64,000 bases of DNA from Squalus acanthias (Eukaryota): assembly GCA_030390025.1 (NCBI GenBank), contig CM059431.1:124746001-124810000 (forward strand). Direction: 5' to 3'. Under the pieces are notes generated by a model. It was not told the DNA's origin and searched no databases. It was given only the letters and a program-made list of their open reading frames with translations. Positions 992 through 58,604 of this stretch are shown one piece after another; position 1 is the first letter of the stretch, and every line of letters begins with the position of its first letter. A program made the position numbers and the translations under genes.

Positions 992-995
992 GAAA

Positions 996-3811: not shown

Positions 3812-4090
3812 GTAGGCCGCCCTGGGAACGGGCGGCGCTGTACAGTTTAAGTTTAGGATAAGTTTATAAGTTTAAGTTTAAGTTTTGTAAGTTTGGTAAG
3901 TTTGTAGTTTAATTTTAAAAGTAAATGATGAAGTGATGGGAGTTTTAGTGATAGGAATAGTTAAAGTCTATCCAGCATACATGCCGTTATACGTGAGACG
4001 AGGTCAAGGGACCCACTCACCCTTCACAAAAGCCAGAGACTCTTGGGAGGCTGGCTACATCATTTTATCTGATCACAGGAACCAGGAAAG

Positions 4091-7000
4091 ATGGAACGGA
4101 TTCTGATAGTGCTCGCAACGATCGGATATGGATTGGCCTATCGAGGCCTCACTAAGGATGTCGTTGTGTTTGGTTGCTCCGGGGACACGGCCCCCATCGC
4201 GACGGATGGGACCGGGGAGCGAGAGGCTGAGGAGACCGCCACTTATTTCCACAAGGGAAGGTGGCCGGGATGGCTGGGAACGAATTCGACGGAATACTCC
4301 AGCGCATCCGGATTTGCCTACAAAGAGACTTCTTTGCTGTGCCCCAGGGTGAGCATCATTGCACCCAGAATCAGCGTCACCGTCGGCAAAAGGATTTGTT
4401 TGACATGCAATGGGAAGGTCCCATTGAGCCGATGGTGGTGGTTACGGAAGTTAAGCAAGACTATGAGAAATTCCTCTGTCGAGTGGGAGCGATTGGGTAA
4501 CAATACCCATCGGACAATTACGGGGACTAATGGACAATTGAAAGTCTGTTGGGACAAATGGTGGGAACCGGATGAGGGAATATATGTTTGTATGTGGGGA
4601 TCGAAGTACGTTTGCCCCAAGGGTATATCCATATTTTTCCTACAACAGTGGCAGGATAACAGGAAAGTGATGAGGTGGGATGTCAGCACAAAGGGGTGCG
4701 GAGCTCCATTCTCCCCGATCCTGGTAAACGCCACTGAACTCATCACGCGCCAACGCAAGTCTCCGCCCACGATTCCGGTGGCTTTGGCTCAGGAGGAAGG
4801 GTGCCCAAAACCCACTAAGGGGCCCGGGAATGGTCTGGTACTGGTGCCAACAGATCAGATACTATTTCAGGGGCTACATTACGCGGTGGCTTCGGTGATT
4901 CTAAATCTCACCGAGGTGCATTTACCAGAGTGGTGTCCCAAAGAAACGGAACAATTGTAAAGTTTTGCAATTATCGCGATTCAAAATAACAAGATAGAAG
5001 CAGATTTGTTTGATCAGTTTTATTAAACAAAATGCTGTCATGATATACAGGACACAGAAGCCTGTAAAATGGCCACCACGCATCGTGGCAGAAGCTTCCA
5101 GAAATATAGTGGGCAGACAAGATGGCGTCGAATAAACATTCGATATAAAATTGGATCATACTCGATAAACACTGATAAAGACAGGATGCAACCTGTTTGC
5201 ATTTGTGACAATAGCAAAGATATAAGTGCTGGAATCGTTTTCCATGCACAAGTATGGACCATTGTACTGGGCAATCGAAGGCCCATCCAGACACATCAAT
5301 ACACAAATACCCCCACGGCTCTACAATGAGAGAGACATCGACGGGTGATTAAGCAAGTATTCGGGGGCCCCCAAAACCAGTCAGGGAGACAATTCATTCA
5401 ATCCTGGCTGGGTCAACAATGGGGAAAACATTAACGGGTAGTTGGCCAGTTTCAGGTGCTACCGAAACCCGTTAAAGAGAAGAATCGCCCCATGCTGGGA
5501 GTTTTGAGTGCCAATATTACACAAAGGACAAACATTAAGATTTGAGCGGGAGATAAGGGTACACAGCACTATAACTATAGTGAACAAATGTCCATCGCTC
5601 TCTTGACTCGTGCTGGACTCTTATGCCCTGTATTCGGTCTCTTATCTGACTGCTGAACTCTTTTTTCTCTTGACTCGCTCGACCGCTGGCTGAAGCTCTT
5701 CTTTAGGGCTGGACTCTGTTGACTCTTGACTTTTCGCCGCATTGGTCGAATGTTGGGTGGAGCTCAATCGGGACGAGCCACCCCGACAAGGGCAAGTAGC
5801 ATGGTGCACCATCCCGAGGGTCGGTAAACGCTGTGTGGACCCGAAGGCCCGAAAAGACAAGACGAAACGACAAGAAAAGAAGAAGAATCCACGTGCCGCC
5901 ACGGTCAGTAAACCCCGACCGCGCCCGAAAATACAAGAAAGACTCTTCATTGAAATCTACCGACAACCGGTGTCGGGAACAGGAAGACTCTTCTTTGAGT
6001 TCTACAACCGTGTCCGAGTTCTGTCAAGTTCTTCATGACAACAGGGATTCTGGCCTGCTTGTCGCAGAAGCGAAAATAAACAAGTGGGGTACAGAGACCC
6101 TTCCAAACACGTGACAGTCAGGCGCTGCAGCAAAACGAGCTGAGTGCCTCACTTTAAAATTCTCCGAAGTAACATGAGTGGTGAGCATGTTTCCCGATCC
6201 TACAAATCTAGATGTAGTGTAGGTATTGATAAGGGAGGGTGGTTTTATTAAGGATAAAGTATAATGTGTTCCCCTTTTTACGATGTGCCGTGCGTTCTTC
6301 ATTACCGTAGACCAAGCTTTATGAATGTATGTATACTTGTACTCTCATTAATTTGCGCCTATGACATGTACTTCATGATTCTGGATGCTATGCAATAAAG
6401 ATTTCCATTTCGTACTATTCAACCGGGTCTATTTGAGTTTTTCTCTGCATTATTGCTCCTGCACCTAAATCCAGTGTTAGAACTGTAAGGGCGAGTGGGT
6501 CGAACCACTCACAGGTGCTTATTGCAACAAGGCTGGCCGGAGACCAGAGCAAGCAATAGTATTAGGCAACGAAGGCCTAACCTCGCACCAGCACCATCTG
6601 AGACACGAAACCCTTACACAATTGTACCTGGTCCTGTTAACAAACATGTTCAGGCAATTTTATGAGTTTGATTTTGCAGAGGTTGACTAAACAAGCTTAT
6701 ACACCACACCACACGAAGTTTTGGGTCAGGTGGGGAGACAAAGAAGGGGTGTTGTGAATGATGTGTTCACTGCTTTTAATACGGGAACATCTGTGGTCAA
6801 CGCTCTAGACAACGTGAAGCTGCAGACCCAGATCAACGGTTAAAAAACACAGTTAAAAAGCATCCTCACAAACGAGAACAAGGTGGTAGGGTCTGAGTTA
6901 CATGAGGACCAGGCCATGACACTACACTTAAAAGAGATTATAGCAGAGCTGGAGAAGCATGCGAGAACGGTAAATACCCTGATCAGGGAAGATCGAAATG

Positions 7001-8109
7001 CATCCGATCAAGCTGCGCAGAACGAGGTGTGTGTACTATACGGGGCGTGGTTACTGGCCGAGGGCCGCAGTAATTTGGAGGATTTAAAACAAGGTTTGGT
7101 CCCGTCCTGGATAAGCAACAAACACCTGCAGGCGCTCCACCCTTTTCAGAACGCATTAAGCCTGTGCCAGCTCAGGCTAGCCTCAGAGGCATACCCAGTC
7201 CCAGTGGACTGCGGACGGTCAAATCATACTATCATGGGGATAGTAGTACGGATGCTGGTGTTGGGCGACACAGCAAAGCCCGCCCTGGTGTACCGGGTGG
7301 AGAACATTGGTGTCATTCAGGGGGGAGCCCACATTTGCTACGCAGCGGTCCCACCTTACATCATCTGCTGGGAGCAAACGATGACAGGTACCGACCTATC
7401 GGGTTGTCGTGGCCGGGGAGCACACATCATACTGTGTCCCCAGCACTTGAATGCCTTTTTAACACCACAATGCGGGTTCAGAACGGCTGGCGCGAAGCCC
7501 ATGAATTGCACCATGGAAGCAATGACACAAGATCATGTGCCCCCACAGGTGGCATACATAGGCGGTGGAACGTATTGCGTTACCACTGCAGCGCAACACT
7601 ACCAGCATGGACAGCACAGCCGGTGTCCGGTGAGTGACAGCAGTTTCTGTTTTAAACCCAGGGCTGAAGTTCAAGTGGCACAACAGCGAATTGTCCCGAT
7701 CCCTGAACCATCCACTGTTCACCTCACAGTAAAAGAGAATTTCACAGACTTGCAGCGATTCGTCGCGCATTTCGGGTACATCATTCCTCCTCTCCCTGAA
7801 CACCTCACCAAGATTTTAAAAGCTGTCATGGTATCACAGAAACATTTTTAAACCCTGGATTAGAAAACTGTAGAGATAGGGACAGAAATATTGGACACAG
7901 TAACCCCACCGTGGTGGGATCTGTTCACTAATATTGAAGTCCCGTCCTGGATCAGGATAGCCTCCCACATTTTGGTAGTGTGTCAAGTTGTAATTGTAGT
8001 GTACCTATTGGTCGTACACTGCAAAAGAGGCAAACGCCTCACAAGGCAGGAGAACACAGGGGAGTGGAGAGAACGTTACGTGCGCGTGAACGAGGAAAGT
8101 ACCGCGTAA
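4091..8109 (+). pseudogene. env: env of element A, split by a solo LTR at 4956-6618 and carrying several premature stops
   Basis: ORFs 4091-4960, 6883-7851 and 7891-8109 are nearly identical in protein to B env; EQL|YLVL is continuous across the insertion. Confidence 0.93.
4956..6618 (+). mobile_element. Solo LTR inserted in env of element A
   Basis: TGTAAAG...CCTTACA termini; 4-bp TSD CAAT at 4952-4955 and 6619-6622. Confidence 0.95.
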
Positions 8110-8499
8110 ACGGACAGGATGACGCCGCTCCATTTTACCATGTGTGTTTTTGTAGTTGTTGTTAGTTATGAGTATTTGTGATTAAGTTTGAACTTTTGTA
8201 TTTTTAAAATAGTTGGTTTGATTATTTTTCCTTTTATAATAAAACATGCATATGCAGGTGGTGCGAGAGGCATCGGCCTTTTGCACCTGGAAGGCGTATA
8301 CGCAGTGTAAGTTTAAAGGCAATGCTGCCTACGGTTTGTCCAAGTTTAGACAATGAGTTTTCTCTGGGAAATGAGGACTGCATGGAGTCCCTAGACAGTT
8401 TAATTACCGGGAATGTTTGGATGTGGAGAATTGGGATAATTTGCTCACCAGCATTTAATTGATACGATAAGCGGAGTTATTCGCATCAACAGGAGGGAC

Positions 8500-43039: not shown

Positions 43040-44689
43040 TGTAGAATTCGCAATTATCGCGATTTCATTTTAATAAGGAGAAAACACAAGTTTCGTTCAA
43101 AACAGCTTTTATTTCAGCGGAATGCTGTCAGGTTTAAATTGGACACAAGCAGCCTGTAAAATGGCCGCCGCACCGCGTGACAGAACATTCGAGACTTTTC
43201 GGCAGGCAGACAAGATGGCGTTCCAATAAACATTTTTGCAGGATCGATAACGATTCAGCACAGTGAAGACAATACACAGGACATTATGGGTTTACAGTAT
43301 AAACATCGATACTGGAATCGGTCTCCCAGGTACAAAGGAAAGCCATCAAGGGCCCATCCAAAGGACATTAATATGTAAACTCCCAACGGCTCTACGATGA
43401 GAGAACCGTTAGCAGGTAGTTATACAGGACACTTGGAAGCCCCAAACCCCTCCAGGGGGAACACCGACCGATTTGACAATGGGAGAAATATTAACAGGTA
43501 CTCAAACATTCAGGAGTAGCCCCGAAACCCATTAAGGACAGAGATCACCCATACAGGACATTTTTGGGCGCCAAACCTTAAACAAAAGAATGGACATTGT
43601 AGTTGGGCGGGAAACGGAAGAACTGTGCACTATAATTGCAGGCCCAAACCGTCCATTCGCTCTCTTGACTCTTGCCTCGTGTTCGTGACTCTTGCTCTTT
43701 TGCTCTTGACTCTTGCCGCTTGCTGCTGTTATCATCGTGGCTGCTCCTGTGTTTTATCCGGTCGATTCGTAACCTCGTGGCTGCTCCTGGGTAAAAGACT
43801 GTTGCAAAGACCTATGTTGGTAGCTGGCAGCGGAACCGAAGGCCCGGGATGAGACGAGATGAGATGAGATGAGATGAGAGGAGAAGAGAAGAAGACCTTA
43901 TCCATCGCCACGGTCAGTAAATCCCGACCGCGCCTGTAGGTCGATCAGCCAAGTCTTCTCGACAGGAAGTTTTCTTCTTTAACAAGACATATTGCATCGA
44001 TGATAACTGGACTGTGCAAACACATCGTATCAGCGATATTGACAACGGTGCTCCACCATACCCTGTATCCAACCAACAGAGGTCTTCACTACAGCGGACG
44101 GTCCAGCCGACTGACCGAGCAGCAGAAGCAGTAAACAAGTGGGACCAGGAGATCTCCTGACCAACACGTGGGTGCTGCGGTGAAAAACATCCGATCAGCT
44201 ATTCGGGATTTCTCCGAGTTATTACGAGTGGTGAGCATGAGTCTCGGGATCCTACGAAGCTAGTTTTAGGATAGTTATTGATAGGGGAGGGTTTAAAGTT
44301 TAAGGATATTTGTAATGTGTGCCCTATTTACGTTGTGCTGGTCGTTCCTCGTTTCCCTAAGAGTGATTATAACTGTTTGTAAGATTGTACTGTCATTAAT
44401 CTGTGCATATGACATGTATTTCATAATTTTAAGTATCATGCAATAAAGATTTTCCATTTCGTACCGTTCAAACCAAGTCTACATGAGTTTTATCTCCATT
44501 ACTGCTCTCGCATCTAAGTCCAGTGTCTAGAACCGTAAGGGAGAGTGATTCGAACCACTCACAGGGGTGTCTAGTGTTCCCAGACTGGCTGGAGACCAGG
44601 CCTAGACCCGCACTGACATACAGGCTGCACAGAGCCGCGTGAACCTCACAGGCCACGAGACACGCAGGGTCAGGAGAGTATCCCTTACA
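43040..44689 (+). repeat. 5' LTR of element B
   Basis: TGTA...TACA termini; TATAAT at 43631; AATAAA at 44442. Confidence 0.97.
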
Positions 44690-44693
44690 GAAA

Positions 44694-46505
44694 ATGGCGA
44701 CCGCGGCAGGACACTGGCAGCGAGAGGGTAGTGTGTTAGATTTTGGAATGACTGTACGAAATGTGATGCAGGAAAAGATAGCGGATTACGTATTTGGAAA
44801 GGTTAATCTAACGAAAAAGTGGATAAGCGAACTGTTAGCGGATAAGAGCCCCCTAGAGGCAGCTGAAAGGTGGACGGATAGTAAGGAGCATAAAAAGGCA
44901 GTTGAGAAAGCAGTCTGGCTTATGTGCTACAAAAGGCAGGTTCAGATTTCAAACCAGACCAATACAGCGCTAACCGCTCGAATCAAGCAGTTAGAGGAGG
45001 AAATGGAGGAGAAGGTTTCTGGAGGGGAGGCGCTCATTAAGAGTTTAAATGAGTTACGCCAGGAAAGCCAGGAAGTCTCCAGTTACCTTAAAACAAGGGT
45101 AGAGTATCTCGAGTGCCAGATCACTGAAGCAAAATTAAACGAGAGTAGGATGAAGGAAAGATGTAACCGTCAAGCTGCCCAGATAAGAACTCAAGAAGAG
45201 AGCTTAATGGGGGTTAGGTCGGCGTATAAGTTGGCCCTTGAGGATAAGTTTCAGGGAGCCGACCATAGCGCCTGCGAAAAAGAGATAGAGAGCCTCAAAA
45301 AGGCCGTGAATAATGCGAACGGCATGGTGTGCCTTATTAATCCGTCGGCACGCCAGCCGCTAGTAAATGAGAGATTTAGAAATTCCCCACCAAGTAAAGC
45401 AGAAGAGGTAGTAGCCACTGCGCCCTCCGCGCCACCCAGCTATTCAGAAACCTGGGTTAGGGAGGAAGCAACGGAAGAAACAAAAGAGCCCGTTGAAAAG
45501 GAGGTAGAAAAGGGATCGTTGTATCCAGTAACGGGGATTAAAAGGGGCCCAAGCAGAAACGGTGGGGAAGAACCGGGGGATCTCCTCGGACAGCTGGTGT
45601 TGCCTCACAGTTCACATCAGCTGAGGGCTATGATAAACCACGTAAGGAAGCTGACCGAGATAGACGACCCTTCCGTACATTTTAGGGAAGTTGAGCAAGC
45701 CGCAGCCATCAACGGCTGCGATGATGGGGAGACAGCAAAAATGCTGCTGTTCTCTTTAGATAGCTCGGTCCTTCAGTGTCTCTCAGGCGATAGCAAGAGG
45801 GGTAATAAAAGTTATGAGGAATTGAAAAATGAGGTCCTAGAAGTAGTGGGAGCGAACGACGGAGGTCCGTTTGCTAGAGTGGGACAGACAGTGCAGATGG
45901 AGGGAGAACCCCCGAAGGTTTTTGCCGACAGGCTGTGGCCAGTATATGAGCGCAGCTGTCTAGGTGCGCCCGAGCGCGAAGATGTGGAAGGCGCCGCTTT
46001 AATTCATTGGCTTAGGTGCATAATAGCCAACAGTTTACCAGCCGTTAGAGAGCAGGCAAAAGCCTGGTTCGATCCCAATGACCTCAACCTTACGGAAGAG
46101 TCGGTCTTGAATCGACTCACGTTAGGTTACCGTAACATAAGGGGTATGGCAACACGTCCCTTTAAGGGAAGAGTACATGAGGTACGACCCGCAGCCCCGG
46201 CTCAAAGAGAGTGGCATCAGGAGGGTAATCGCGCCCCACAGGCAAGTAATGCCTGTTACGGGTGTGGGAAGACAGGGCACTGGCGCAAGCACTGCAGGAA
46301 CCCTTGGAAGGATTCCAAGGATAAAAATCCCGCGGTCCGAGCCCAGGCGCCTGTCCCGGCTAAGGAAGCAAAGGCACCCACCTCTCCCGAAGACCTCGAG
46401 GCAGTGTTAGGAGTCATGCGCAAGATGGTTTTGAATGCGCGTGGACAGGTGGCGGTCGCAACCGGCCCCGTAGGTGCCGCAGGACCGTCTAATAGTGCCC
46501 CATGA
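44694..46505 (+). CDS. gag: Gag (603 aa): coiled coil, PSAPPSY late domains, capsid-like region, single CCHC knuckle
   Basis: Position directly after the LTR; CYGCGKTGHWRKHC; open ORF. Confidence 0.95.
   Translation: MATAAGHWQREGSVLDFGMTVRNVMQEKIADYVFGKVNLTKKWISELLADKSPLEAAERWTDSKEHKKAVEKAVWLMCYKRQVQISNQTNTALTARIKQLEEEMEEKVSGGEALIKSLNELRQESQEVSSYLKTRVEYLECQITEAKLNESRMKERCNRQAAQIRTQEESLMGVRSAYKLALEDKFQGADHSACEKEIESLKKAVNNANGMVCLINPSARQPLVNERFRNSPPSKAEEVVATAPSAPPSYSETWVREEATEETKEPVEKEVEKGSLYPVTGIKRGPSRNGGEEPGDLLGQLVLPHSSHQLRAMINHVRKLTEIDDPSVHFREVEQAAAINGCDDGETAKMLLFSLDSSVLQCLSGDSKRGNKSYEELKNEVLEVVGANDGGPFARVGQTVQMEGEPPKVFADRLWPVYERSCLGAPEREDVEGAALIHWLRCIIANSLPAVREQAKAWFDPNDLNLTEESVLNRLTLGYRNIRGMATRPFKGRVHEVRPAAPAQREWHQEGNRAPQASNACYGCGKTGHWRKHCRNPWKDSKDKNPAVRAQAPVPAKEAKAPTSPEDLEAVLGVMRKMVLNARGQVAVATGPVGAAGPSNSAP
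44695..44712 (+). promoter_or_regulatory. Primer binding site, tRNA-Arg(TCG)
   Basis: TGGCGACCGCGGCAGGAC is the 18-nt complement of ...GTCCTGCCGCGGTCG-CCA (vertebrate tRNA-Arg-TCG, recalled from memory). Confidence 0.82.
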
Positions 46506-49500
46506 CTAGAACCAGCACAGCCCGTCTACCTGTGTCCGCTCAGCTATGATGCGTGGAGGCGACCTGTGGTGGAGATGGAGGTAGAGAAACAAAAGGGCAG
46601 TTATTTGTTGGACACGGGAGCTTCTTGCACCATAATCCATACAGATGACCCTTTTGACTCGCCGCTATCTACCAAGGTCCCATTCACGCTAGCAGGGTTC
46701 ACAGGGAAAGAACAGGCTGGCACGTTTTCCCTCCCGCTATCCATTCGTTTAGGGACACTTCGCCTTAAGTGGAAGTGTATACTGATGGCATGGCAAAAGG
46801 GGGGTGGAAGAGGTATTCTCGGGTCCGATCTGCTAGCGGGACACGGGATCCTCGTGGACCTCAGAAATCACTGTCTCTGGGGGGCTAAAGGGGAAAAAGG
46901 CGAGGTAATGGTAATTCAAGGGGAGGAAGAAACAGGGGTCCTGTGTACCGTACAGCCATCCGGAGGCTACGACCTCAGGCTTATGGTCGCAGATGTCCCA
47001 ACGGACATGCAAACGTACGTGACAGATAATATGCACGCGTTTGCAACCCACAAGCACGATTGTGGGAGGGTGGTCGGGTTTGAGGTCAGCGTAGATGGGG
47101 ACCCCATGACCCGACCCCAAAAGCAGTATAACTTCCCCAAAGAAGCAGAACCCGATATGGAGGCAGCAATGTCTTCCTTGGTGCAGCAGGGCGTGTTGAG
47201 GCCGATAGCCACACACGTGAACTCCCCATTATGGCCGGTTAGGAAGCCGGATAATTCGTGGAGAGCCACGGTGGACTACAGAGTCCTTAACAGTAACATC
47301 CCCGCCTGCGCGCCCACAGTAGCAGCAGTTGCTGACCTAATAGGGAGCATCCCAGCGTCCGCGACCACGTTCACGGTGCTGGATATCTCGAACGGTTTTT
47401 GGTCCATCCCGCTGCGGCGAGAGGACCAGTACAAGTTTGCCTTTACGTTTAAAGGGCAACAGTACACGTGGAACTGCTTGCCACAAGGTTTCCACAATAG
47501 CCCCAGTATTTTTCACCAGTGTATGGCAGGAAGTTTAAAGGAGTTTAGTCAGCCCAATCAGATAGTACAGTATGTGGATGATTTGCTCCTATTTACGGAC
47601 TCAAGGGAGGAGCACGGACCACTGCTGGACGAGTTATTGGAGCTGTTAGCGAGAAAGGGTTTTAAAGTAAACCCAAAGAAAGCACGTATCGGTCAGCAGG
47701 AAGTAAAATTCCTGGGACTGACCCTACGCGCTGGGGAAAGAGCCATAGACAAAGCAAGGAGGGAGTCGGTACAAGAATTACCGATTCCCAACAACGTAAG
47801 GGGTGTGAGGTCCTTCTTGGGACTGACCGGTTACTGCAGGGATTTTATCGAGGATTATGCGGCCACAGCGGCGCCGCTCCTCCGACTCCTCCATAAGGGA
47901 GTAGAGTGGCTTTGGGACGAGGGCTGCCAAGCAGCCTTCGAGAAGTTAAAAAGGGATCTGCAGACCGCGCCAGCCTTAGGGGCCATAGATGGGGGGAAGG
48001 AGTTTTTCCTGGAGGTAGCTGCCAGCGGAGACAGCTTAAGCGCCGTGCTGCTCCAAGAGCGTCACGGCAAGCTGAGGCCGGTTGTCTATTCATCCAGGGT
48101 ATTAACGGATGTGGAGAGAAGTTTTTCCAATTGCGAAAGGCACCTTTTAGCCACGCATTGGGCTGTGAAAAGATCAGCGATCTTCACAGGGCTCTCTCCC
48201 ATCACTCTCCTCACACATCACACACCAACTAAGATGCTTCTGGATGGGAGGATTAAAGACGGGACCGTAAGCAGCGCACGCATTGCGCGTTGGACCCTTC
48301 TTCTCTCCCAGTTGGACATCAGAGTAAAAGGTCTTTGCGAGCCCAGGCTTGCGGCCAATTTGGTATACCCCGGTACAGCCCACCGGTGTTCGGTGGAGGG
48401 GGTGTGGGAGGTCAACATAGGTTTACGGGCCGGGATACATCCCACTGGGCGCGAGATTTATGTTGATGGGTCTAGCACAGTATCTGCTGGCGAGCGACTC
48501 ACAGGGTGTGGAGTTTATGACCCTGCGGCAGACCTTGCCCTGGCGATCAAGCTCCCTAGCACCATGAGCGCGCAGCAGGCTGAGCTGTCTGCCGTGGTGT
48601 ACGTGGTAACCCACCCAGACATTTTCCCAACCCCATACACGATTTGCTCGGACAGTATGTTCACCTGCAATTCGTGTACGGAATACCTGGCCATTTGGTC
48701 CCGCCGTGGATACACCTCCGCGGACGGGCGACCTTTAACGGTAAAGCCCTTGCTGGAGAAGATCTTAGCAGCAGCAGTAGGGGAGGAAGGGGAGATTTTC
48801 ATCCATAAAGTGAAAGCTCACTCCTCCACAGAGCCCCGTGGGGAGGGCAACCGGCAGGCGGATGCGCTAGCCAGGGAGGGTGCCCGCGACGGTACTTTCT
48901 GGAACCCCTATAGAACCGGACCCATAGCAGCGGTCCGAGGTGGGGACGGGAATACCGGGAACACCAGGGTAGCATTGCCCCTAGACCTTAAGACCGTCCA
49001 AGCCCAGGATCCCGCCCTAAAAGCAGTCCTAAAAACGATTGCTGAGGGGAGGCAGGTAGAAGGTCCGTACAGTACGGCAACCCTCTCAGTTAAGGAAGGC
49101 ATGCTGTTCCGCGAGGAGCAGTGGGTTGTGCCGCAGCAGCACAGGAGGGAATTCCTCCAGTTGGCTCACGAGGGACCAGGGGCAGGGCACCCCGGGCCCG
49201 AGGTTACCTGGCAACGGGTAGAGCAAGCGGGATGGTGGCCAGGGCTCAGGGAACAAGTCCGCGAGTTCTGTGCAAACTGTCTTGTGTGCGCTGCAAACAA
49301 CCCAGACCCCCAGAAAAGGAAGGTGCCCATGGGACACGTAAGAAGGGTAGAGGGACCATGGCAGTCGATACAGATCGACTATATAGGACCCCTGCCCACC
49401 ACCCAGGGAGGTTATAAGTACTGCCTCGTCCTGGTGGATGTGTTTTCCAAGTGGGTGGAAGCCTTCCCTTGTCGAACAGCTACGGCACTGGGTACAGCAA

Positions 49501-51008
49501 AAATCTTGGTCCGGGAAGTGTTCTCGCGGTGGGGACTCCCCCGTTTCGTGGAGTCAGACCAAGGGAGTCATTTCACCGGCCAGGTGATGCAGAACACCCT
49601 CATGCTTTTGGGCATTGAAGGGAAGTGGCACGTAGCACACAATCCCCAGTCATCCGGGATTGTTGAACGTATGAACCGGACCCTGAAGGAGAAATTGAGG
49701 AAAGAGACTAGGAACTCGCCCCAAAAATGGGCGGAAGTTCTGCCTTTAGTCCTCATGGGGGTCCGGGCCAGTCAGTCAAAAAGTACGGGGTACTCCCCGC
49801 ACGAGGTAATGACCGGCAGGCTCATGCGAACCCCCACCCATGTGCTAGCCCCGGTGCTCACTGAGGGTCAGCTTCAAGAGATCAGCAGGGACAAGTTCGC
49901 CCAAACTCTCTTGGAGCGCCTGAAGCAAGTTTATGAGCAGGCGGCTGGGAACATGGGAAGGCAGCACCAGGGCAATCGCTTGTTGCTGGAACCCCGCAAA
50001 ACGCGGGAGTGGGAAGTAGGAGACCAGGTCATGGTCAGAAACTACGCCAGAGTAGGGAGTCTGGAACCACTGTATATGGGACCCTACAACATTGTAGACA
50101 AGGCGAGTCCCATGGTTTACGCCGTAAAAGTACCTCGGCGCACTAAGTGGTTCCACATAAACCAATGTAAACTGTACCAGCCGGGTGCGCAAGGGAAAAC
50201 TACAGGGGTAAATCCCGCCAATGGGAAAACACAGCCCCAGGTAGGACCACAAGGCACACAGGCAGGCGTAGCAGCTTGCATCAGGGGAAGGGACATCCCG
50301 GACGATCATGCAGCGTTTTTCTGGAGTTGGGGGTTAGATGACGAGGACCCCAGGGTACCCTGGTCAGATGAGGATAGTGCAGATGAGCATAGTGATGATG
50401 ACGGGTGGTTTCAGAGGAACGGTCTGGAAGGATTGGGGCCGCTAGGTAGAGATCCATACGGGGTGGACACACAAGCTGCAGGTCCCGACAGCAGGAGGAA
50501 GGAGCTAGAGGAGGCCGGGCCAGCCGCTATGTGGTTCCCAGAGGTGTGGCCGCCCGCTTTGAACGTCCAGTCCTCAGGGGAGGCAGAGTTCGCGAGTGAA
50601 GGGCCGCCTGCTGGGCCGAGCAGGGCGGGGCCCCGAACTGCCAGCCCCGAGGTTAGGGAGGCGGAGTCAGCGGAGGCGGGGCTGGCGCCTGTGATGGAAC
50701 CCCAGGTCATCCCGTTGAAGGTCTCGGGACCCGGTCCGTCCGTCACGGAGCCCCCGCCCATAGCAATTCCCCGTAGGTCAAGCAGAGTACCCCAGCCCAG
50801 GAAGACGTGGTCAGGTCCACAGGCTGCCCCAGGGCGTAAGTTTCAGGTTAAGATAACCCGGGTAGAGACAGGCCACATCGAGGCAGTAACAGGCTGCGGC
50901 AGATCAGAGGAAAGGGTCAGCGCAGCAACAGGCTGCGGCAGATCAGAGGGAAGGGTCAGTGCCCTCCCACCGTCGGGAAGAGCTCGCAGCAGCCTTCTCA
51001 GGATTTAA
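46506..51008 (+). CDS. pol: Pol (PR-RT-tether RH-RNase H-IN-long tail), in frame with gag after TGA
   Basis: LLDTGA; LPQGFHNSP; YVDD (47571); IYVDGS/SAQQAEL/SDS/KVKAH/GNRQAD; HHCC; QIDY...ESDQG...SSGIVERMNR. Confidence 0.97.
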   Translation, partial: LEPAQPVYLCPLSYDAWRRPVVEMEVEKQKGSYLLDTGASCTIIHTDDPFDSPLSTKVPFTLAGFTGKEQAGTFSLPLSIRLGTLRLKWKCILMAWQKGGGRGILGSDLLAGHGILVDLRNHCLWGAKGEKGEVMVIQGEEETGVLCTVQPSGGYDLRLMVADVPTDMQTYVTDNMHAFATHKHDCGRVVGFEVSVDGDPMTRPQKQYNFPKEAEPDMEAAMSSLVQQGVLRPIATHVNSPLWPVRKPDNSWRATVDYRVLNSNIPACAPTVAAVADLIGSIPASATTFTVLDISNGFWSIPLRREDQYKFAFTFKGQQYTWNCLPQGFHNSPSIFHQCMAGSLKEFSQPNQIVQYVDDLLLFTDSREEHGPLLDELLELLARKGFKVNPKKARIGQQEVKFLGLTLRAGERAIDKARRESVQELPIPNNVRGVRSFLGLTGYCRDFIEDYAATAAPLLRLLHKGVEWLWDEGCQAAFEKLKRDLQTAPALGAIDGGKEFFLEVAASGDSLSAVLLQERHGKLRPVVYSSRVLTDVERSFSNCERHLLATHWAVKRSAIFTGLSPITLLTHHTPTKMLLDGRIKDGTVSSARIARWTLLLSQLDIRVKGLCEPRLAANLVYPGTAHRCSVEGVWEVNIGLRAGIHPTGREIYVDGSSTVSAGERLTGCGVYDPAADLALAIKLPSTMSAQQAELSAVVYVVTHPDIFPTPYTICSDSMFTCNSCTEYLAIWSRRGYTSADGRPLTVKPLLEKILAAAVGEEGEIFIHKVKAHSSTEPRGEGNRQADALAREGARDGTFWNPYRTGPIAAVRGGDGNTGNTRVALPLDLKTVQAQDPALKAVLKTIAEGRQVEGPYSTATLSVKEGMLFREEQWVVPQQHRREFLQLAHEGPGAGHPGPEVTWQRVEQAGWWPGLREQVREFCANCLVCAANNPDPQKRKVPMGHVRRVEGPWQSIQIDYIGPLPTTQGGYKYCLVLVDVFSKWVEAFPCRTATALGTAKILVREVFSRWGLPRFVESDQGSHFTGQVMQNTLMLLGIEGKWHVAHNPQSSGIVERMNRTLKEKLRKETRNSPQKWAEVLPLVLMGVRASQSKSTGYSPHEVMTGRLMRTPTHVLAPVLTEGQLQEISRDKFAQTLLERLKQVYEQAAGNMGRQHQGNRLLLEPRKTREWEVGDQVMVRNYARVGSLEPLYMGPYNIVDKASPMVYAVKVPRRTKWFHINQCKLYQPGAQGKTTGVNPANGKTQPQVGPQGTQAGVAACIRGRDIPDDHAAFFWSWGLDDEDPRVPWSDEDSADEHSDDDGWFQRNGLEGLGPLGRDPYGVDTQAAGPDSRRKELEEAGPAAMWFPEVWPPALNVQSSGEAEFASEGPPAGPSRAGPRTASPEVREAESAEAGLAPVMEPQVIPLKVSGPGPSVTEPPPIAIPRRSSRVPQPRKTWSGPQAAPGRKFQVKITRVETGHIEAVTGCGRSEERVSAATGCGRSEGRVSALPPSGRARSSLLRI

Positions 51009-51291
51009 AGGGGCCGCCCTGAGAACGGGCGGCATTGTAAAGTTATTAGTTTAAGGTTTTAAGTTTTAGTTTAAAGTTTTAAGTAGTTTTAATAAGTTTA
51101 AGTTTGTAGTGTTTTTAACAGATAACGACAAATGATGGGAGTTTTAAGGCTAGGTTTAGAGGAAGTCTATTTAGCAAACGTTGAAGTTTACGTGAGGCGA
51201 GGTCAGGGGACCCGCTCACCCTTCACAAAAGCCAGAGACTTTTTGCGAGGCTGGCTACCTCATTCTATCTGATCACAGGAACCAAGGAAGG

Positions 51292-53643
51292 ATGGAACGA
51301 CTTCTAGTTTTGCTCGTGGCAATCGGATGTGGATTGGCCTATCGGGGCCTCACCAAGGATGTCGTGGTGTTTGGATGTTCCGGGGACACGGCCCCCATCG
51401 CGGTGGATGGGACCGGGAGACGGAAGGCAGAAGGGACCAGCACCTATTTCCACAAGGGAAGGTGGCCAGGATGGCTGGGAACGAACTCAACGGAGTATTC
51501 CAGCACATCGGGGTTCGCCTACAAAGAGACTTCTTTAATGTGCCCCAAAGTACGGATCATCGCACCCAGGATCAGCGTCACCGTCGGCAAACGGATTTGT
51601 TTGACCTGCAGTGGGAATGTCCCATTGAGCCGATGGTGGTGGCTGCGAAAGCTGAGCAAAACTATGAGGAACTCTTCGGTTGAGTGGGAGCGACTGGGTA
51701 ATAATACCCATCGGACAATTACGGGGACAGATGGACAAGTGAAAGTCTGTTGGGACAAATGGTGGGAACCAGATGAGGGGATTTATGTTTGTATGTGGGG
51801 GTCAAAGTACGTTTGCCCCAAAGGCATCTCCATATTCTTTATTAACCAGTGGCAGGATAACGGACAGGGGATGAGGTGGGATGCGAGCACCAGGGGGTGC
51901 GGAGCCCCATACTCTCCGATCCCAGTAAATGCCACTGAGCTCATTACGCGCCCACGCAAAGCCCCGCCCACGATTCCGGTGGTTCTAACTGAGGAAGAAG
52001 GGTGCCCTAAAACTAGTAAGGGACCCGGGAACGGTTTGGTACTGGTCCCCACAGACCAGATACTATTTCAGGGAGTGCATTACGCGGTGGCCTCGGTGAT
52101 TTTAAATCTCACTGAGGTACGGTTACCAGAGTGGTGCCCCAAAAAGACGGAACAGTTGTACCAGGTCCTGTTGACCAAGATGTTCAGGCAATTTTACGAG
52201 TTTGATTTTGCAGAAATTGATAAGACAAGTTTGTACACCGCACCGCAGGAAGTTTTGGACCAAGTAGGGAGGCAAAGAAGGGGTTTGGTGAACGATGCGT
52301 TCACTGCTTTTAACACAGGGACATCTGTGGTCAACGCTCTAGACAGTGTGGAGCTGCAGACCCAGATTAATGGTTTAAAAACACAGTTAAAGGATATTCT
52401 TACAGATGAGAATAAAGTGGTAGGGTCGGGTCTGCACGAGGACCAAGCCATGACACTACACTTAAAAGAGATTATAGCAGAGCTGGAGAAACATGCGCGT
52501 ACGGTAAATGCCCTGATTAGGGAAGATCGGAATGCATCCGATCAAGCTGCGCAGAACGAGGTGTGCGTGCTTTACGGGGCGTGGTTACTGGGCGAGGGCC
52601 GCAGTAATTTGGAGGATTTAAAACAAGGTTTGGTCCCGTCCTGGATAAGTAACAAACACCTGCGGGCGCTCCACCCTTTTCAGAATGCATTAAGTCCGTG
52701 CCAGCTCAGGCTAGCTTCAGAAGCTTACCCAGTCCCCGTGGACTGCGGACGTTCAAACCATACTATTATGGGAATAGTATTACGCATGCCGGTTTTGGGC
52801 AACACAGCAAAGCCCGCCCCGGTGTATCGGGTAGAGAACATTGGTGTCATTCAGGGGGGAGCCCACATTCGTTATGCAGCGGTTCCACCTTACGTCATCC
52901 GCTGGGAGCAAACGATGACAGGTACAGATCTCTCTGGTTGTCGTGGCAGGGGAGCACACATAATACTGTGCCCCCAGCACTTGAATGCCTTTTTAACACC
53001 ACAGTGCGGGTTCAGAACGGCTGGCGCCAAGTCCATGAATTGCACCATGGAGGCAATGGCCCAAGATCATGTGCCTCCGCAGGTAGCATACATCGGGGGT
53101 GGAACATATTGTGTTACCACTGCAGCGCAACACTACCAGCATGGAAACCGTAGCCGGTGTCCGGTGAGTGACAGCAGTTTCTGTTTTAAACCCAGGGCTG
53201 AAGTTCAAGTAGCACAACAGCGAATTATCCCAATCCCTGAACCATCCACTGTTCATCTCACAGTAAAAGAGAATTTTACCGACTTGCAGCGATTTGTCGC
53301 ACATTTTGGGTACCTCATTCCCCCTCTCCCCGAGCATTTAACCAAACTTCTGAAAGCCGTCGCGGTGTCACAAAAGCATTTCTATACATTAGAACAGAAA
53401 ACCGTCGAGATAGGTACAGACATTTTGGACATAGTGGTTCCACCGTGGTGGAATCTGTTCACGAATATTGAAGTGCCCTCATGGGTCAGAATAGCCTCCC
53501 ACATTTTAGTCGTCTGTCAAGTGTTTATTGTAGTATACCTTTTGTTCATACATTGTAAAAGAGACAAGCGCCTCACCAAGCATGAGAACACGGGAGAGTG
53601 GCGAGAACGTTACGTGCGCGTGCACGATGAGAGCGCAGTGTAA
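51292..53643 (+). CDS. env: Env (783 aa): signal peptide, Ig-like domain, furin site RQRR, fusion peptide, heptad repeat, Cys-rich region, TM, YxxPhi tail
   Basis: Hydrophobic N-terminus; RQRR|GLVNDAFTAF at 52270; C-terminal TM IASHILVVCQVFIVVYLLFI; splice acceptor ATCACAG at 51278. Confidence 0.93.
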   Translation: MERLLVLLVAIGCGLAYRGLTKDVVVFGCSGDTAPIAVDGTGRRKAEGTSTYFHKGRWPGWLGTNSTEYSSTSGFAYKETSLMCPKVRIIAPRISVTVGKRICLTCSGNVPLSRWWWLRKLSKTMRNSSVEWERLGNNTHRTITGTDGQVKVCWDKWWEPDEGIYVCMWGSKYVCPKGISIFFINQWQDNGQGMRWDASTRGCGAPYSPIPVNATELITRPRKAPPTIPVVLTEEEGCPKTSKGPGNGLVLVPTDQILFQGVHYAVASVILNLTEVRLPEWCPKKTEQLYQVLLTKMFRQFYEFDFAEIDKTSLYTAPQEVLDQVGRQRRGLVNDAFTAFNTGTSVVNALDSVELQTQINGLKTQLKDILTDENKVVGSGLHEDQAMTLHLKEIIAELEKHARTVNALIREDRNASDQAAQNEVCVLYGAWLLGEGRSNLEDLKQGLVPSWISNKHLRALHPFQNALSPCQLRLASEAYPVPVDCGRSNHTIMGIVLRMPVLGNTAKPAPVYRVENIGVIQGGAHIRYAAVPPYVIRWEQTMTGTDLSGCRGRGAHIILCPQHLNAFLTPQCGFRTAGAKSMNCTMEAMAQDHVPPQVAYIGGGTYCVTTAAQHYQHGNRSRCPVSDSSFCFKPRAEVQVAQQRIIPIPEPSTVHLTVKENFTDLQRFVAHFGYLIPPLPEHLTKLLKAVAVSQKHFYTLEQKTVEIGTDILDIVVPPWWNLFTNIEVPSWVRIASHILVVCQVFIVVYLLFIHCKRDKRLTKHENTGEWRERYVRVHDESAV

Positions 53644-54028
53644 TGGGAAAATGGCGTCACTCCCGCTCGCCACGTGCGCCGCGGAAGTTTGTACCCATTG
53701 TAAATACGTTGGAAACTCGACATGTTTAAGAGTCGGGATTTGTTTATTTTGGTGATGGTGTTGATTGTTTGGTTTTTGGGTTTTGTTTTTCCTTCCCTTG
53801 AATAAAAGACAAATATACAGGTGATGCGTGAGGTATCGGCCTGGTTACGCCGGGAAGGAAAACAAGTGGTGTAAGTTTAAGGGCAAATGATGCCTACGGT
53901 GATATAAAATGTGATTTTTTCTTGGGAAATGAGGACGACACAGAGACCCTAGTGAAGTTAAAATTTTATGGGATTAATTTACTGGATTCGGAGTGAAATC
54001 GAGATAAGATTGCTCACCACTGAGATTT

Positions 54029-54069: not shown

Positions 54070-55719
54070 TGTAGAATTCGCAATTATCGCGATTTCATTT
54101 TAATAAGGAGAAAACACAAGTTTCGTTCAAAACAGCTTTTATTTCAGCGGAATGCTGTCAGGTTTAAATTGGACACAAGCAGCCTGTAAAATGGCCGCCG
54201 CACCGCGTGACAGAACATTCGAGACTTTTCGGCAGGCAGACAAGATGGCGTTCCAATAAACATTTTTGCAGGATCGATAACGATTCAGCACAGTGAAGAC
54301 AATACACAGGACATTATGGGTTTACAGTATAAACATCGATACTGGAATCGGTCTCCCAGGTACAAAGGAAAGCCATCAAGGGCCCATCCAAAGGACATTA
54401 ATATGTAAACTCCCAACGGCTCTACGATGAGAGAGCCGTTAGCAGGTAGTTATACAGGACACTTGGAAGCCCCAAACCCCTCCAGGGGGAACACCGACCG
54501 ATTTGACAATGGGAGAAATATTAACAGGTACTCAAACATTCAGGAGTAGCCCCGAAACCCATTAAGGACAGAGATCACCCATACAGGACATTTTTGGGCG
54601 CCAAACCTTAAACAAAAGAATGGACATTGTAGTTGGGCGGGAAACGGAAGAACTGTGCACTATAATTGCAGGCCCAAACCGTCCATTCGCTCTCTTGACT
54701 CTTGCCTCGTGTTCGTGACTCTTGCTCTTTTGCTCTTGACTCTTGCCGCTTGCTGCTGTTATCATCGTGGCTGCTCCTGTGTTTTATCCGGTCGATTCGT
54801 AACCTCGTGGCTGCTCCTGGGTAAAAGACTGTTGCAAAGACCTATGTTGGTAGCTGGCAGCGGAACCGAAGGCCCGGGATGAGACGAGATGAGATGAGAT
54901 GAGATGAGAGGAGAAGAGAAGAAGACCTTATCCATCGCCACGGTCAGTAAATCCCGACCGCGCCTGTAGGTCGATCAGCCAAGTCTTCTCGACAGGAAGT
55001 TTTCTTCTTTAACAAGACATATTGCATCGATGATAACTGGACTGTGCAAACACATCGTATCAGCGATATTGACAACGGTGCTCCACCATACCCTGTATCC
55101 AACCAACAGAGGTCTTCACTACAGCGGACGGTCCAGCCGACTGACCGAGCAGCAGAAGCAGTAAACAAGTGGGACCAGGAGATCTCCTGACCAACACGTG
55201 GGTGCTGCGGTGAAAAACATCCGATCAGCTATTCGGGATTTCTCCGAGTTATTACGAGTGGTGAGCATGAGTCTCGGGATCCTACGAAGCTAGTTTTAGG
55301 ATAGTTATTGATAGGGGAGGGTTTAAAGTTTAAGGATATTTGTAATGTGTGCCCTATTTACGTTGTGCTGGTCGTTCCTCGTTTCCCTAAGAGTGATTAT
55401 AACTGTTTGTAAGATTGTACTGTCATTAATCTGTGCATATGACATGTATTTCATAATTTTAAGTATCATGCAATAAAGATTTTCCATTTCGTACCGTTCA
55501 AACCAAGTCTACATGAGTTTTATCTCCATTACTGCTCTCGCATCTAAGTCCAGTGTCTAGAACCGTAAGGGAGAGTGATTCGAACCACTCACAGGGGTGT
55601 CTAGTGTTCCCAGACTGGCTGGAGACCAGGCCTAGACCCGCACTGACATACAGGCTGCACAGAGCCGCGTGAACCTCACAGGCCACGAGACACGCAGGGT
55701 CAGGAGAGTATCCCTTACA
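54070..55719 (+). repeat. 3' LTR of element B
   Basis: Matches the 5' LTR except A43405/G54435 by eye. Confidence 0.97.
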
Positions 55720-58604
55720 TTGATTTCTGTGCTGGATTTCTGACAGGTGTCATGTAGCCACTGGAGCAGCGAGGTCCAAGCTAGAGTCTGCATCCGGATC
55801 TGACTTGCAAACTAGGGCTATTGAAGTTGCAGAATCAAAGATTTGAGAACACAGTAGAATTCAAGTCCCCAGCTGCATAGAAAGGGTAAGGCCTCAGCAT
55901 GGAAACTTCATGGAAGCATGTAAAACATGCAATGCCTAACTTTATAGGTAAGTTGGTTGCAGAATGGTGTAATTTCTAATCTATTTATTTTGTATGAATT
56001 TTTAGGAATATGCACTAAGGTGTGAAAGGAAACAACAAGGCCACTCAAAATACTTGAAGCATACAGTTTGAGTTGAAGGGATAATTACAAGTCCTAGACC
56101 TTTCGGACTACCCCAGTTCAGACGTATTCCCCAGACGTTCACCTTCAACTAAAGTTAGCGGTAGCCAAATCCTTGAGATGCTTAATTGGGTCTAAAGGTC
56201 AGACTACCTCTCCCTAAAGGAAAGAAATGGCTTGAAGATGTTACCGTCCTCCGGATAGCACTTTTAAGAAGTTTAACTAGACTGTAACCTTCCGGATATT
56301 ATGAGGGTCCAGAAAACCCCCCAGAATTCTGCAACTCCTCTCTGAAGAGTTTACAGAAATTGAGTTTGCGAGGTTGATACTTGAGACAATTCTAAAAATA
56401 TATAGATTTATTTAAGAGCCGACATTCAGTTAACAGCTGATAAGTCAATCGCGACTTTAACTGTTCAAAATACAAATAGCTTACATTTCTTATCAGAGAT
56501 CCTTATTCTCAAATCTTAACTTGGTTACATTTCCACACTTCTACTTATTTCTTAATCCAGAATATCCACCAAAATCAAATACCTTGATTACCCGAGACTC
56601 AGAGTTGAAAACTTACAGAGCGTGCCTATGAAGTTGAGAAACGCTTGCCCTTCCAGCGACTTCTGACTCTCTATCTGAAAAGCTCTTATTTTTATACTCT
56701 TTTTTAGTGGTATATTCTTTGAAGTTTTCTTTTGATGTAAGCTAATTATCTCTAGTGATTTTTTACTGAATTCTTTTCTATTCTTACTGTCATTTCAGCT
56801 GCCAACTTTTAGAATTCTGTTTCTACCATTAGGTGTTTCAAAAACTTATCATAAAATATGGTATAACAGATTTATCTATTGATGCTATTCTTAGGAAGTC
56901 TTTCTATTGAATTCTTAATATCACTTAACTGCTTGTAAGCCAGACGTCATGACTCCATGGTGTTCGATGTTAAATACAAACACAATGTAATTGCTTGGTG
57001 TCATCTATTGATATTATATTTTCAAAGCCTCTCTGTAGGTATCTTTTACAACTTGTAAATCAAAAATACTTCAACCAGGGTGTTTTTCCATTTCTTAGCT
57101 ATTTCAATTGGTTGCATATTTAATCGTGTTTCCTGTTTCTAAGTTTAACATACAACTATTTTACGGCAGGTATTTCTTTTACTTGATATCATTTTTTCAA
57201 AGGCACTTGTTTTTTTTAATGTTCTGTGCACCTGTTCGATGTGTTAGATTTTGACACTTTACTTGGGCTTTGCTATTGTTTTGTTCCAAACTCTAGACAT
57301 TCTGGAAGCACCAATGGTTTGCTTCAATAGGGGCTTTGTCTCTGTATTTACAAACCAATTCCCATTTCAAAGCTTGTGGTGTTTTACAGCTTTTGTTAAC
57401 ACTTCACCTTATCTCAGAAGCCTGTATTGTGTTTGCAGCCTGTGTCTCCGAGGCTTTCCAGACTTTTAAACTCAGTATGTCTTGTATTAATAACATCAAA
57501 ATCTGTTCATAGGATGATGTATTTCTTGGAATATGGCTTATTCCATTACAGAGTAACTGGATTGGTTGATTTTGTGGTACATGCTGGTTTGTGAATAGCA
57601 CCTTTGAAATAATTAGCAATTTAATTGGTTGGTTTTCTGATAGTTACTACTTGTTGATTGGTGGCTTTCCCTAGCTGACTAATGAATGGATTGGTTCACA
57701 TTTAGTCAATGGGATATTTGAGTCAGTCAGCATGTTCCATATAACATATAATGATTATTTCAGCCAATTACAATTTTTTGCCTCACAGACATACGGGGTA
57801 AATTTTCATCCATTGGTGAATGAAAATCGGACGGGTTCGATAATGGCGTGTGATCCACTCCACCAGATTACCACCCATGCAGTGAAGATGAATAGTTACC
57901 CTGTGATAGCTTTAACATGTGATGCTTTTGAGCTGTTTGATGCTATGGATGCACACTAGATGCAAGACTTTTAATAATATAAATTTCAATTTTGATTGTG
58001 TAGTCTATTCCATGAAATCAAAAAGTGTGGCCTGCACACTCTTTCCAGAGGGAAGTCAGAGGGTAAGGTCGAAAGGATTCAATGCTGCAAAAGTCTGACA
58101 AAAACTTTTAAAACATTTACTTTTGTTTATTAAATTATATAATTAAATTAACCTTTGTTACTATGCAAAGCAATGTAAAGAAAATAAAGGAACAAATCCA
58201 GTCATTGACCTGAAGGATGAAATTTATATGCAGTTACATTGGGCCTTGGAGAGACTTCAGTAGGAGCTACAAATGCCCAAATTTTCCCATTAATAGCAAC
58301 GGCCTTAAAGGGACAGGTCAGATTATAAACTCAACATCATGACCATGCACCAGTCTCGCATAAGCAACAGCACAGAACATCCACTAATAAACTAAAAAAA
58401 ACTTTATTTAACTTTTGTTAGAATTCCATAATAGTGGATTCAAAACTAAATAATTTGAAACAAGTCAATAGTAATGCAAATGTAAAATGTGTGACACATG
58501 GGCCAATATTGAGGACCAACGGCCTATGTCCCAAGGGTGCCTCAAAGATGTCTGACCTGATATTGGGCCAGGCCATTTTTCGGATGGCTGAGGTGGCCAC
58601 CTAA

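Follow-up and report, generated by a model that had tools for sequence, protein, structure and literature searches.

The entry proteins of retroviruses and paramyxoviruses are textbook cases of a receptor-binding part joined to a fusion machine. In paramyxoviruses, the fusion protein F works with a separate attachment protein (HN, H or G). Here, we analysed a stretch of 64,000 nucleotides from Squalus acanthias (CM059431.1), hereafter the window, to whose positions all coordinates refer (Table 1). It carries a complete provirus of an endogenous retrovirus (ERV), whose 783-amino-acid (aa) envelope protein (Env) appears to be an F-like fusogen with an extra, self-contained immunoglobulin (Ig)-like head that its published relatives lack. 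We liken the element, as a candidate relative at the level of reverse transcriptase (RT), to the lokiretroviruses through its Env and its layout. For that group, the supplement of Wang & Han 2020 (PMC7947760) prints 23 consensus Envs, 22 of them with an N-terminus, and its table gives lokiretroviruses in 0 of 6 cartilaginous-fish genomes.

To the extent that the published supplement covers them, lokiretroviruses share with this locus a retrovirus-like make-up with gag, pol (dual RNase H) and env, and an Env with a signal peptide, an RxK/RR site, a fusion-peptide region, coiled-coil regions and a transmembrane (TM) helix. Also held in common, as judged by eye, are a G-x-S/T-x-x-N-A/S-V/L motif after the cleavage site and a [PG]GPxxG[ILV] motif ~85-88 residues upstream of it. 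In the printed sequences, the latter motif directly follows the signal peptide in 22/22 Envs with an N-terminus (by eye), and the RxK/RR site lies 87 residues past it in Loki-Xla (hand count) and ~85-88 residues past it in the others (by eye; PMC7947760). The window Env carries GPGNGLVLV at residues 244-252, and its RQRR ends 85 residues past the Pro of that stretch, at residue 330 (hand count). However, ~225 residues stand between the signal peptide and this F2-like motif, comprising a leader, an Ig-like domain and a Pro-rich hinge, and the mature N-terminus is thus not the F2-like segment that defines it in lokiretroviruses. No CxxC...WWW...DxGxYxC pattern or Ig-like stretch was seen by eye in the 22 printed lokiretrovirus Envs (PMC7947760). 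Because ~225 extra residues precede the motif that follows the signal peptide in all 22, comparison of the sequences argues that this lineage of cartilaginous fishes has an Ig-like module added to its Env that is specific to it. The preliminary description of the window had allowed for the domain being a universal, already described part of lokiretrovirus Env; among the printed consensus sequences, 22/22 are without it.

In our literature search, with bioRxiv supplements outside its scope, neither an Ig-like domain on the Env of a lokiretrovirus or other F-type retroviral element nor this lineage in cartilaginous fishes had been described. Likewise, a term look-up in the available text of PMC7947760, PMC9040795, PMC13524379, PMC13709493, PMC11089739, bioRxiv 10.1101/2021.11.23.469661 and 10.64898/2026.05.06.723177 returned no mention of an Ig-like Env domain.

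The Ig-like domain was recognisable from its motifs. Residues 85-185 (51544-51846) had been singled out for a set of Ig hallmarks, and all of these are present in the sequence. The motif stretch ISVTVGKRICLTC holds C103 and C106, W115-W117 follow 9-11 residues past C106 at the C-strand position, and DEGIYVC (D161 to C167) supplies a D-x-G-x-Y-x-C motif in which G163 and Y165 are nearly invariant. The spacing of 61 residues between C106 and C167 falls within the range of 55-75 for V and I domains of the immunoglobulin superfamily (IgSF). Both cysteines were kept in 9/9 full-length members holding the region. Across a 14-row alignment C106 and W117 were invariant, with C167 replaced by Tyr in one locus (L043). 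Further conserved cysteines within the domain occur at residues 84, 103, 153 and 175. In the modelled fold C106 would pair with C167, and C103-C153 (B-E) and C84-C175 (A-FG/G) are probable further disulfides because those cysteines can sit on neighbouring strands of such a fold. An invariant CxxC (C-L-T/S/V/I-C; residues 103-106, 51598-51609) lies in the predicted B strand, and probably explains a sub-threshold match in the Protein Data Bank (PDB) to the ARFGAP1 zinc finger.

Profile searches pointed the same way at low scores. Run on residues 77-193 alone, Pfam Ig_3 (PF13927) gave E 0.019 and 15.9 bits (gathering cut-off 30), and a sub-threshold Ig_3 match was found in 9/10 diverged full-length Envs (best E 0.0028), the open reading frame (ORF) of the tenth beginning at residue 168, without the region. 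When the single sequence was searched against the PDB, the top three matches were JAM and a pair of antibody light chains (E ~1). With a profile from alignment A4 (14 sequences of low diversity, residues 73-200, without chimeric parts), the two best were the Ig-V domain of CRTAM (E 0.009 and 0.016), aligned end to end; the matches at E <= 10 numbered nine, four Ig-type and five non-Ig. The CRTAM and JAM alignments span the whole domain, and in them C106, the Trp and DxGxYxC each fall opposite the canonical partner. For residues 20-235, the leads from ESM-Atlas were Ig families, at scores of up to 0.80 (<= 0.80). A profile from alignment A2, which included foreign parts of chimeric gene models, gave only a meaningless match to phage gp26 (E 2.2) and was superseded by A4.

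Structure prediction on residues 73-200 with A4 (AlphaFold2) gave a mean predicted local distance difference test score (pLDDT) of 63 and a predicted template modelling score (pTM) of 0.58. The 10 beta strands of the model run A', B, C, C', D, E, F, G, as in V/I-type domains, and over ~100 residues it forms the two-sheet Greek-key beta-sandwich of the IgSF. Foldseek of this model against the PDB returned nothing at E <= 0.001; the rows listed were V-type Ig chains, judged by their titles, with the shark VNAR 2i27_N as the best (E 0.017, template modelling score 0.41/0.47). The structural neighbours were almost all V-type Ig chains and spanned ~90 residues. The top cellular neighbours were TREM-1, NKp44, TREM2 and CD300a, and the best viral neighbour (BFVD) was the membrane protein UL6 of human cytomegalovirus (HCMV; E 0.015). 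Because V domains of innate receptors, antibodies and T-cell receptors (TCR) tie within one Z unit, no donor family can be named. The preliminary description had looked to structure prediction for a beta-sandwich; the shorter construct provided one, with V-type neighbours and at moderate confidence, but the longer construct (residues 20-259) did not give a usable model.

Ig_3, the CRTAM profile, AlphaFold2 and Foldseek therefore agree on the Ig-like domain that had been proposed N-terminal to the fusion core, and give it as a V-type beta-sandwich at residues ~90-185. This evidence is consistent, beyond chance and below curated cut-offs, and we grade it as moderate. Weighing all of it, we hold an Ig-like fold of residues ~84-190 to be very probable.

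The word "captured", which had been applied to the module, fared less well. An exhaustive phmmer search with residues 1-253 against 1.84 billion representative proteins returned 10 proteins and no cellular or host donor; nine were ERV-like fragments and one was a bacterial-type repeat protein. This 5014-aa protein (P0010), the single non-ERV match for the pre-Ig segment, matched residues 21-89 through 16 weak repeats (summed E 3.3e-11) and is probably a compositional or repeat artefact. Word-index searches for a donor or wider relatives gave cartilaginous-fish ERV fragments only, several in chimeric gene models. In a scan of IMG/VR for relatives, none of 40 pattern matches was confirmed.

C-terminal to the domain, the linker is Pro-rich and carries TRPRK (residues 219-223), and the core begins near GLVLVP (from residue 248), both as noted before. 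The linker also contains a sequon at N213 (10/10 Envs), the invariant pair R222-K223, and C203 and C238. The RQRR site is kept in 9/10 aligned Envs (RQRS in the other), with R329 and G331 invariant and R327 and R330 nearly so. The layout of the core fits a class I fusogen of the F type, with a furin-type site, helical region, Cys-rich beta region, membrane-proximal repeat and TM helix (~53482-53556, residues ~731-755). C282 and C425 are invariant among the aligned Envs. For residues 240-735, ESM-Atlas gave 0.92 to Baculo_F and Fusion_gly clusters, with 195-201 shared features and a cluster membership of 61% Baculo_F and 83% Fusion_gly. The F-type family profiles (PF00523 Fusion_gly, PF12259 Baculo_F) did not identify the core. 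This is a difference from the published lokiretroviruses, as PF00523 is given at E 2.2e-7 for Loki-Str in the paper (PMC7947760), with no match here. Prediction of a six-helix-bundle complex from three copies each of residues 345-425 and 676-722 scored 0.01 against a mark of 0.34, which counts neither way. The F-type core of the preliminary description thus held in its ESM-Atlas features and architecture but not in PF00523, which matched neither 10 Env members nor the genome. With the first two as its basis, we assign the core to the F-type class I fusion glycoproteins at weak to moderate confidence.

The module is not confined to a single copy. An identical 783-aa Env without stops was found at 57/57 scored genomic places, from 12,907 first-look candidates in the 3.7 Gb genome; a query with the related N-terminal domain gave 5,830 candidates. 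The ERV family is very large and very young, and consists of at least three subfamilies. It was active very recently, as the identical intact Env at 57/57 places shows together with long terminal repeats (LTRs) that differ at 1/1650 positions. The Ig-like domain also occurred in two further subfamilies, in which N-terminal parts were 49-61% identical and cores 69-78%, and in protein fragments publicly named from skate and sawshark. Three sawshark gene models (Niban 1-like, P0003; ZFP2-like, P0004; cadherin-related 5-like, P0012) hold env fragments and look like chimeric mis-annotations. At least half of the sampled 31-letter words of env (51200-53700) were present in 14 public runs from eight studies with seven coded organism labels. 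These runs are contigs of unrecorded or guessed kind, none listed as RNA, and a near-identical env seems to be present in several labelled organisms.

An older relative of the same ERV, element A, occupies positions 1-10100 of the window. As had been claimed, the domain is conserved in it, at 92% identity over residues 84-186, with TRQRK in place of TRPRK. Element A lacks almost all of pol, so that its gag-like part (521-2671) is followed almost at once by the N-terminal part of env (3723-4959). A 1.66-kb insertion (4960-6617) interrupts env, which has five in-frame stops overall. The inserted DNA is a repeat of LTR-like sequence from element A itself, 5045-6562 matching 8590-10094.

Divergence was uneven along the Env. 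Relative to subfamily R, non-synonymous divergence (dN) was 0.41-0.44 in the pre-Ig segment, 0.24-0.25 in the Ig domain, 0.29-0.34 in the linker and 0.12-0.14 in F1. Between elements B and A the ratio of non-synonymous to synonymous divergence (dN/dS) of the Ig domain was 0.05, demonstrating purifying selection, which also applied to the other Env parts. Since synonymous sites were saturated between subfamilies, the module is old within the lineage. Mean entropy within the Ig domain (14 sequences) was 1.04 bits for the 36 loop positions and 0.61 bits for the 65 strand positions, a difference with p 0.002 in a one-sided Mann-Whitney test. Variability peaked in the C-C' region and the FG loop, both predicted loops.

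How might such a protein work? We hold it somewhat likelier to be right than wrong that this is an F-like class I Env with a lineage-specific Ig-like domain as a built-in receptor-binding head. The element would then be a recently active ERV whose Env is a class I fusion glycoprotein of lokiretrovirus/paramyxovirus F-like build. After removal of the signal peptide, a furin-type cut at RQRR330 would yield an SU-like part (residues 17-330; SU, surface subunit) and a membrane-anchored F1-like part (331-783). The former would run from a ~65-residue leader through the Ig-like domain (~84-190) and the Pro-rich hinge (~204-243) to a ~87-residue F2-like strand. A flexible hinge would carry the Ig-like module, as a receptor-binding head, over the fusion core, and engagement of a receptor by the head would release F-like refolding. 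Of these points, cleavage, an F fold in the core and receptor binding by the head are predictions. The element consists of gag, pol and env only, and on the + strand between pol and the 3' LTR there was no second glycoprotein gene and no ORF of at least 80 aa except one overlapping env. As the sole envelope gene product, Env must both bind and fuse.

Several results weigh against this reading. No Ig model rose above its curated threshold for the window's Env, and when hhalign compared the A4 profile with six V-set exons from this genome, the probability was 0.5% over 17 columns. The AlphaFold2 model of residues 20-259 from an 11-row alignment was unusable (mean pLDDT 34.6), and the 73-200 model, built on 14 low-diversity sequences, was of moderate confidence. 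For the core, PF00523 had no match at E <= 10 in 10 Env members, nor any in the genome in a strict first look, which does not show absence, and a full-length Env profile retrieved no F protein from the PDB. For a fusion peptide, the residues that follow RQRR have weak hydrophobicity, and no positive selection was found. Finally, the lokiretrovirus Envs printed in the supplement evidently work without such a head, so a head is not needed in principle.

Other explanations account for parts of the evidence. The Ig-like module could be real and serve immune evasion or shielding, as an IgSF-receptor decoy or a glycan-bearing cap, with the core binding the receptor. The printed lokiretrovirus Envs must still bind cells without a head, the nearest viral structure is HCMV UL6, the top cellular neighbours are innate immune receptors, and the conserved sequons N65 and N137 (each 9/9) lie in or beside the domain. 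However, neighbours that lie within a Z of 1 cannot be ranked and hence point to no immune receptor in particular, and the phmmer search returned no sequence relative among cellular proteins. Decoys are usually separate secreted or membrane proteins, not the tip of a sole fusogen, and the position, hinge and faster-evolving loops suit a binding head equally or better. We consider evasion or shielding unlikely as the main role, and a similarly low probability attaches to residues 85-185 not being Ig at all, the likeness having arisen by chance in some other Cys/Trp-rich beta domain whose model drifted to the commonest beta-sandwich. That every sequence score was sub-threshold, that the host V-set comparison was negative, that the larger construct modelled so poorly and that the profile's PDB list includes the ARFGAP1 zinc finger, LRRC8A and CIDRa at E 0.05-3 would all fit such a chance resemblance. 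Nevertheless, four independent kinds of evidence agree on Ig. Alignments to CRTAM and JAM cover the whole domain with the hallmark residues on canonical partners, the predicted strand order is V/I-type, and the structural neighbours are almost all V-type Ig chains over ~90 residues.

A further reading takes the N-terminal module as a shed, fusion-regulating clamp, with a second cut at R222-K223 priming the F-like core. In pneumovirus F, two furin cuts remove a peptide, and here R222-K223 is invariant in 10/10 aligned Envs and lies in an exposed Pro-rich linker. Proline at P1' disfavours proprotein convertases and trypsin-like enzymes. The sequence makes TRPRK an unlikely processing site, because P1 is Lys, not Arg, and P1' is Pro in 9/10 aligned Envs. 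Moreover, the motif has C203 on one side and C238 on the other, which may keep the parts connected, and the strong purifying selection on the Ig domain points to a role beyond discard. We regard the shed clamp as quite improbable, more so than the two readings above. The role of a receptor-binding head is favoured because the N-terminal parts diverge faster than F1 and the variation sits in predicted loops.

Table 1 Features of the provirus and of element A in the 64,000-nt window
Feature	Position	Strand	Description
5' LTR	43040..44689	+	1650 bp, TG...CA ends; blastn self-match to 54070-55719 at 99.94%
gag ORF	44694..46505	+	603 aa; ends in a single TGA in frame with pol
pol ORF	46575..51008	+	1477 aa counted from first ATG
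env ORF	51292..53643	+	783 aa, intact; third gene of the provirus
Signal peptide, predicted	51292..51339	+	residues 1-16; hydrophobic N-terminus MERLLVLLVAIGCGLA; putative cleavage point
Pre-Ig segment	51340..51540	+	residues 17-83; conserved GRWPGW-LG-NST-YSS motif and C29; AlphaFold pLDDT < 40
V-type Ig-like domain (predicted)	51541..51861	+	residues 84-190; profile, model and motif evidence
Linker	51862..52020	+	residues 191-243; Pro-rich from ~residue 204
F2-like segment	52021..52281	+	residues 244-330; from GPGNGLVLV (244-252) to furin-type RQRR (52270-52281); invariant C282
F1/TM-like subunit	52282..53640	+	residues 331-783; fusion-peptide region, long helical-repeat region, Cys-rich beta region, membrane-proximal repeat, TM helix, short tail
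3' LTR	54070..55719	+	purine-rich tract AACAGGAGGGAC upstream
Element A env, N-terminal part	4091..4960	+	residues 1-289, 87% identical; Ig-like domain; stop at insertion
Element A env, C-terminal part	6619..8100	+	residues 288-781, 90% identical; 4 in-frame stops

The remainder of the provirus matched the lokiretrovirus layout, with gag, pol and env between LTRs that are flanked by a 4-bp target-site duplication, TTGA (43036-43039 and 55720-55723). The gag protein had no Pfam match, and its PDB matches were zinc-knuckle-like and weak. Stop-codon read-through for Gag-Pol is known from gamma- and epsilonretroviruses. The same route is probable here, since gag ends in a single TGA (46503-46505) in frame with pol. 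In Pfam, pol comprised protease-like, RT, tether-type RNase H-like, RNase H and integrase domains (RT_RNaseH/RT_RNaseH_2, RNase_H and integrase families), and hence the dual RNase H of lokiretroviruses. Its PDB neighbours were near-equal: Ty3 at 246 bits, the RT of xenotropic murine leukaemia virus-related virus and murine leukaemia virus (XMRV/MLV) at ~240, and the foamy virus protease-RT at ~217. This pattern of similarity fits a deep-branching lineage belonging to none of the classical ERV classes, although near-equal scores do not give its exact placement. After the SH3-like domain of integrase, pol continues in a ~275-residue Pro/Gly/Ser/Glu-rich tail (residues ~1200-1477, 49950-51008), which had no family match in Pfam.

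In one sequencing run, a single contig connects 44229 with 51278 and leaves out 7048 bases, the ends of which read GT..AG. The joint ends 14 bases upstream of the env ATG, and the donor would sit inside the 5' LTR. Its resemblance to a spliced env mRNA is a hint only, the run's RNA label being guessed and the 25 letters on the shorter side being too few to count as bridging. Elsewhere in the window are three repeat ORFs (35781-37142 on the + strand, 38469-39260 and 62258-63109 on the - strand). One of them has weak RT and GIY-YIG matches and a Penelope-like look; the remaining two carry a Myb/SANT-like DNA-binding domain and an RT fragment.

This locus represents a retroviral lineage of cartilaginous fishes that is new and apparently very young; the published screen for lokiretroviruses, according to its supplement, reported none in these animals. 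The gain of a head would be a natural experiment in the modular evolution of entry proteins, and offers a way to ask how an appended domain might trigger an F-type core in cis. With so many identical intact copies, the Env protein is easy to express and test. A more ambitious scenario, which we put forward tentatively and consider doubtful as a whole, is that a deep-branching retroviral lineage of sharks and rays, overlooked in the published lokiretrovirus screen, fused a V-type Ig domain of a host surface receptor, via a proline-rich hinge, onto a paramyxovirus-like F, thereby combining attachment and fusion in one chain; with its very recent germ-line activity, such a virus may still circulate exogenously.

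Compared with F of paramyxoviruses and pneumoviruses, the window Env would likewise be a class I fusogen cut into a small N-terminal and a large membrane-anchored subunit, with one heptad region after the fusion peptide and a second beside the TM helix, and with subunits probably joined by a disulfide (here putatively C282-C425). In contrast to these viruses, a second glycoprotein gene is missing from the provirus, and at ~315 vs ~100 residues the N-terminal subunit is about threefold larger than is usual for an F-type fusogen and has its own Ig-like head. In the more ambitious scenario, attachment and fusion, split over two proteins in paramyxoviruses, would be merged here in one chain.

The V domains of innate receptors (TREM-1 1u9k, NKp44 1hkf, TREM2 5eli, CD300a 2q87, pIgR, NITR) and of CRTAM (4h5s) were 12-19% identical to the Ig-like domain; those of innate receptors sit in cellular receptors, whereas here the domain belongs to a viral fusogen. 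Among viruses, glycoprotein gD of herpes simplex virus (HSV) is a receptor-binding protein with a V-like Ig core, and herpes- and poxviruses carry IgSF genes. These share with the window Env a V-type Ig fold at a cell-entry or host-interaction surface, but are separate proteins of large DNA viruses, whereas here the fold forms one chain with the fusogen of a retrovirus-like element. In gammaretroviruses, SU begins with a receptor-binding domain built around an Ig-like beta-sandwich, continues in a proline-rich region and ends in a TM-bound C-terminal domain. Common to both are thus a beta-sandwich head, a Pro-rich hinge, a part holding the fusion subunit, and a CxxC (here C103-L-T-C106). However, this CxxC belongs to the B strand of the Ig-like domain and not to a C-terminal domain of SU, the fusion subunit is not gamma-type, with CX6CC and immunosuppressive-domain motifs absent and an F1 ~450 residues long, and no sequence similarity was detected. 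If the more ambitious scenario holds, the head-hinge-fusogen design of gammaretroviral Env would have been reached independently in this lineage.

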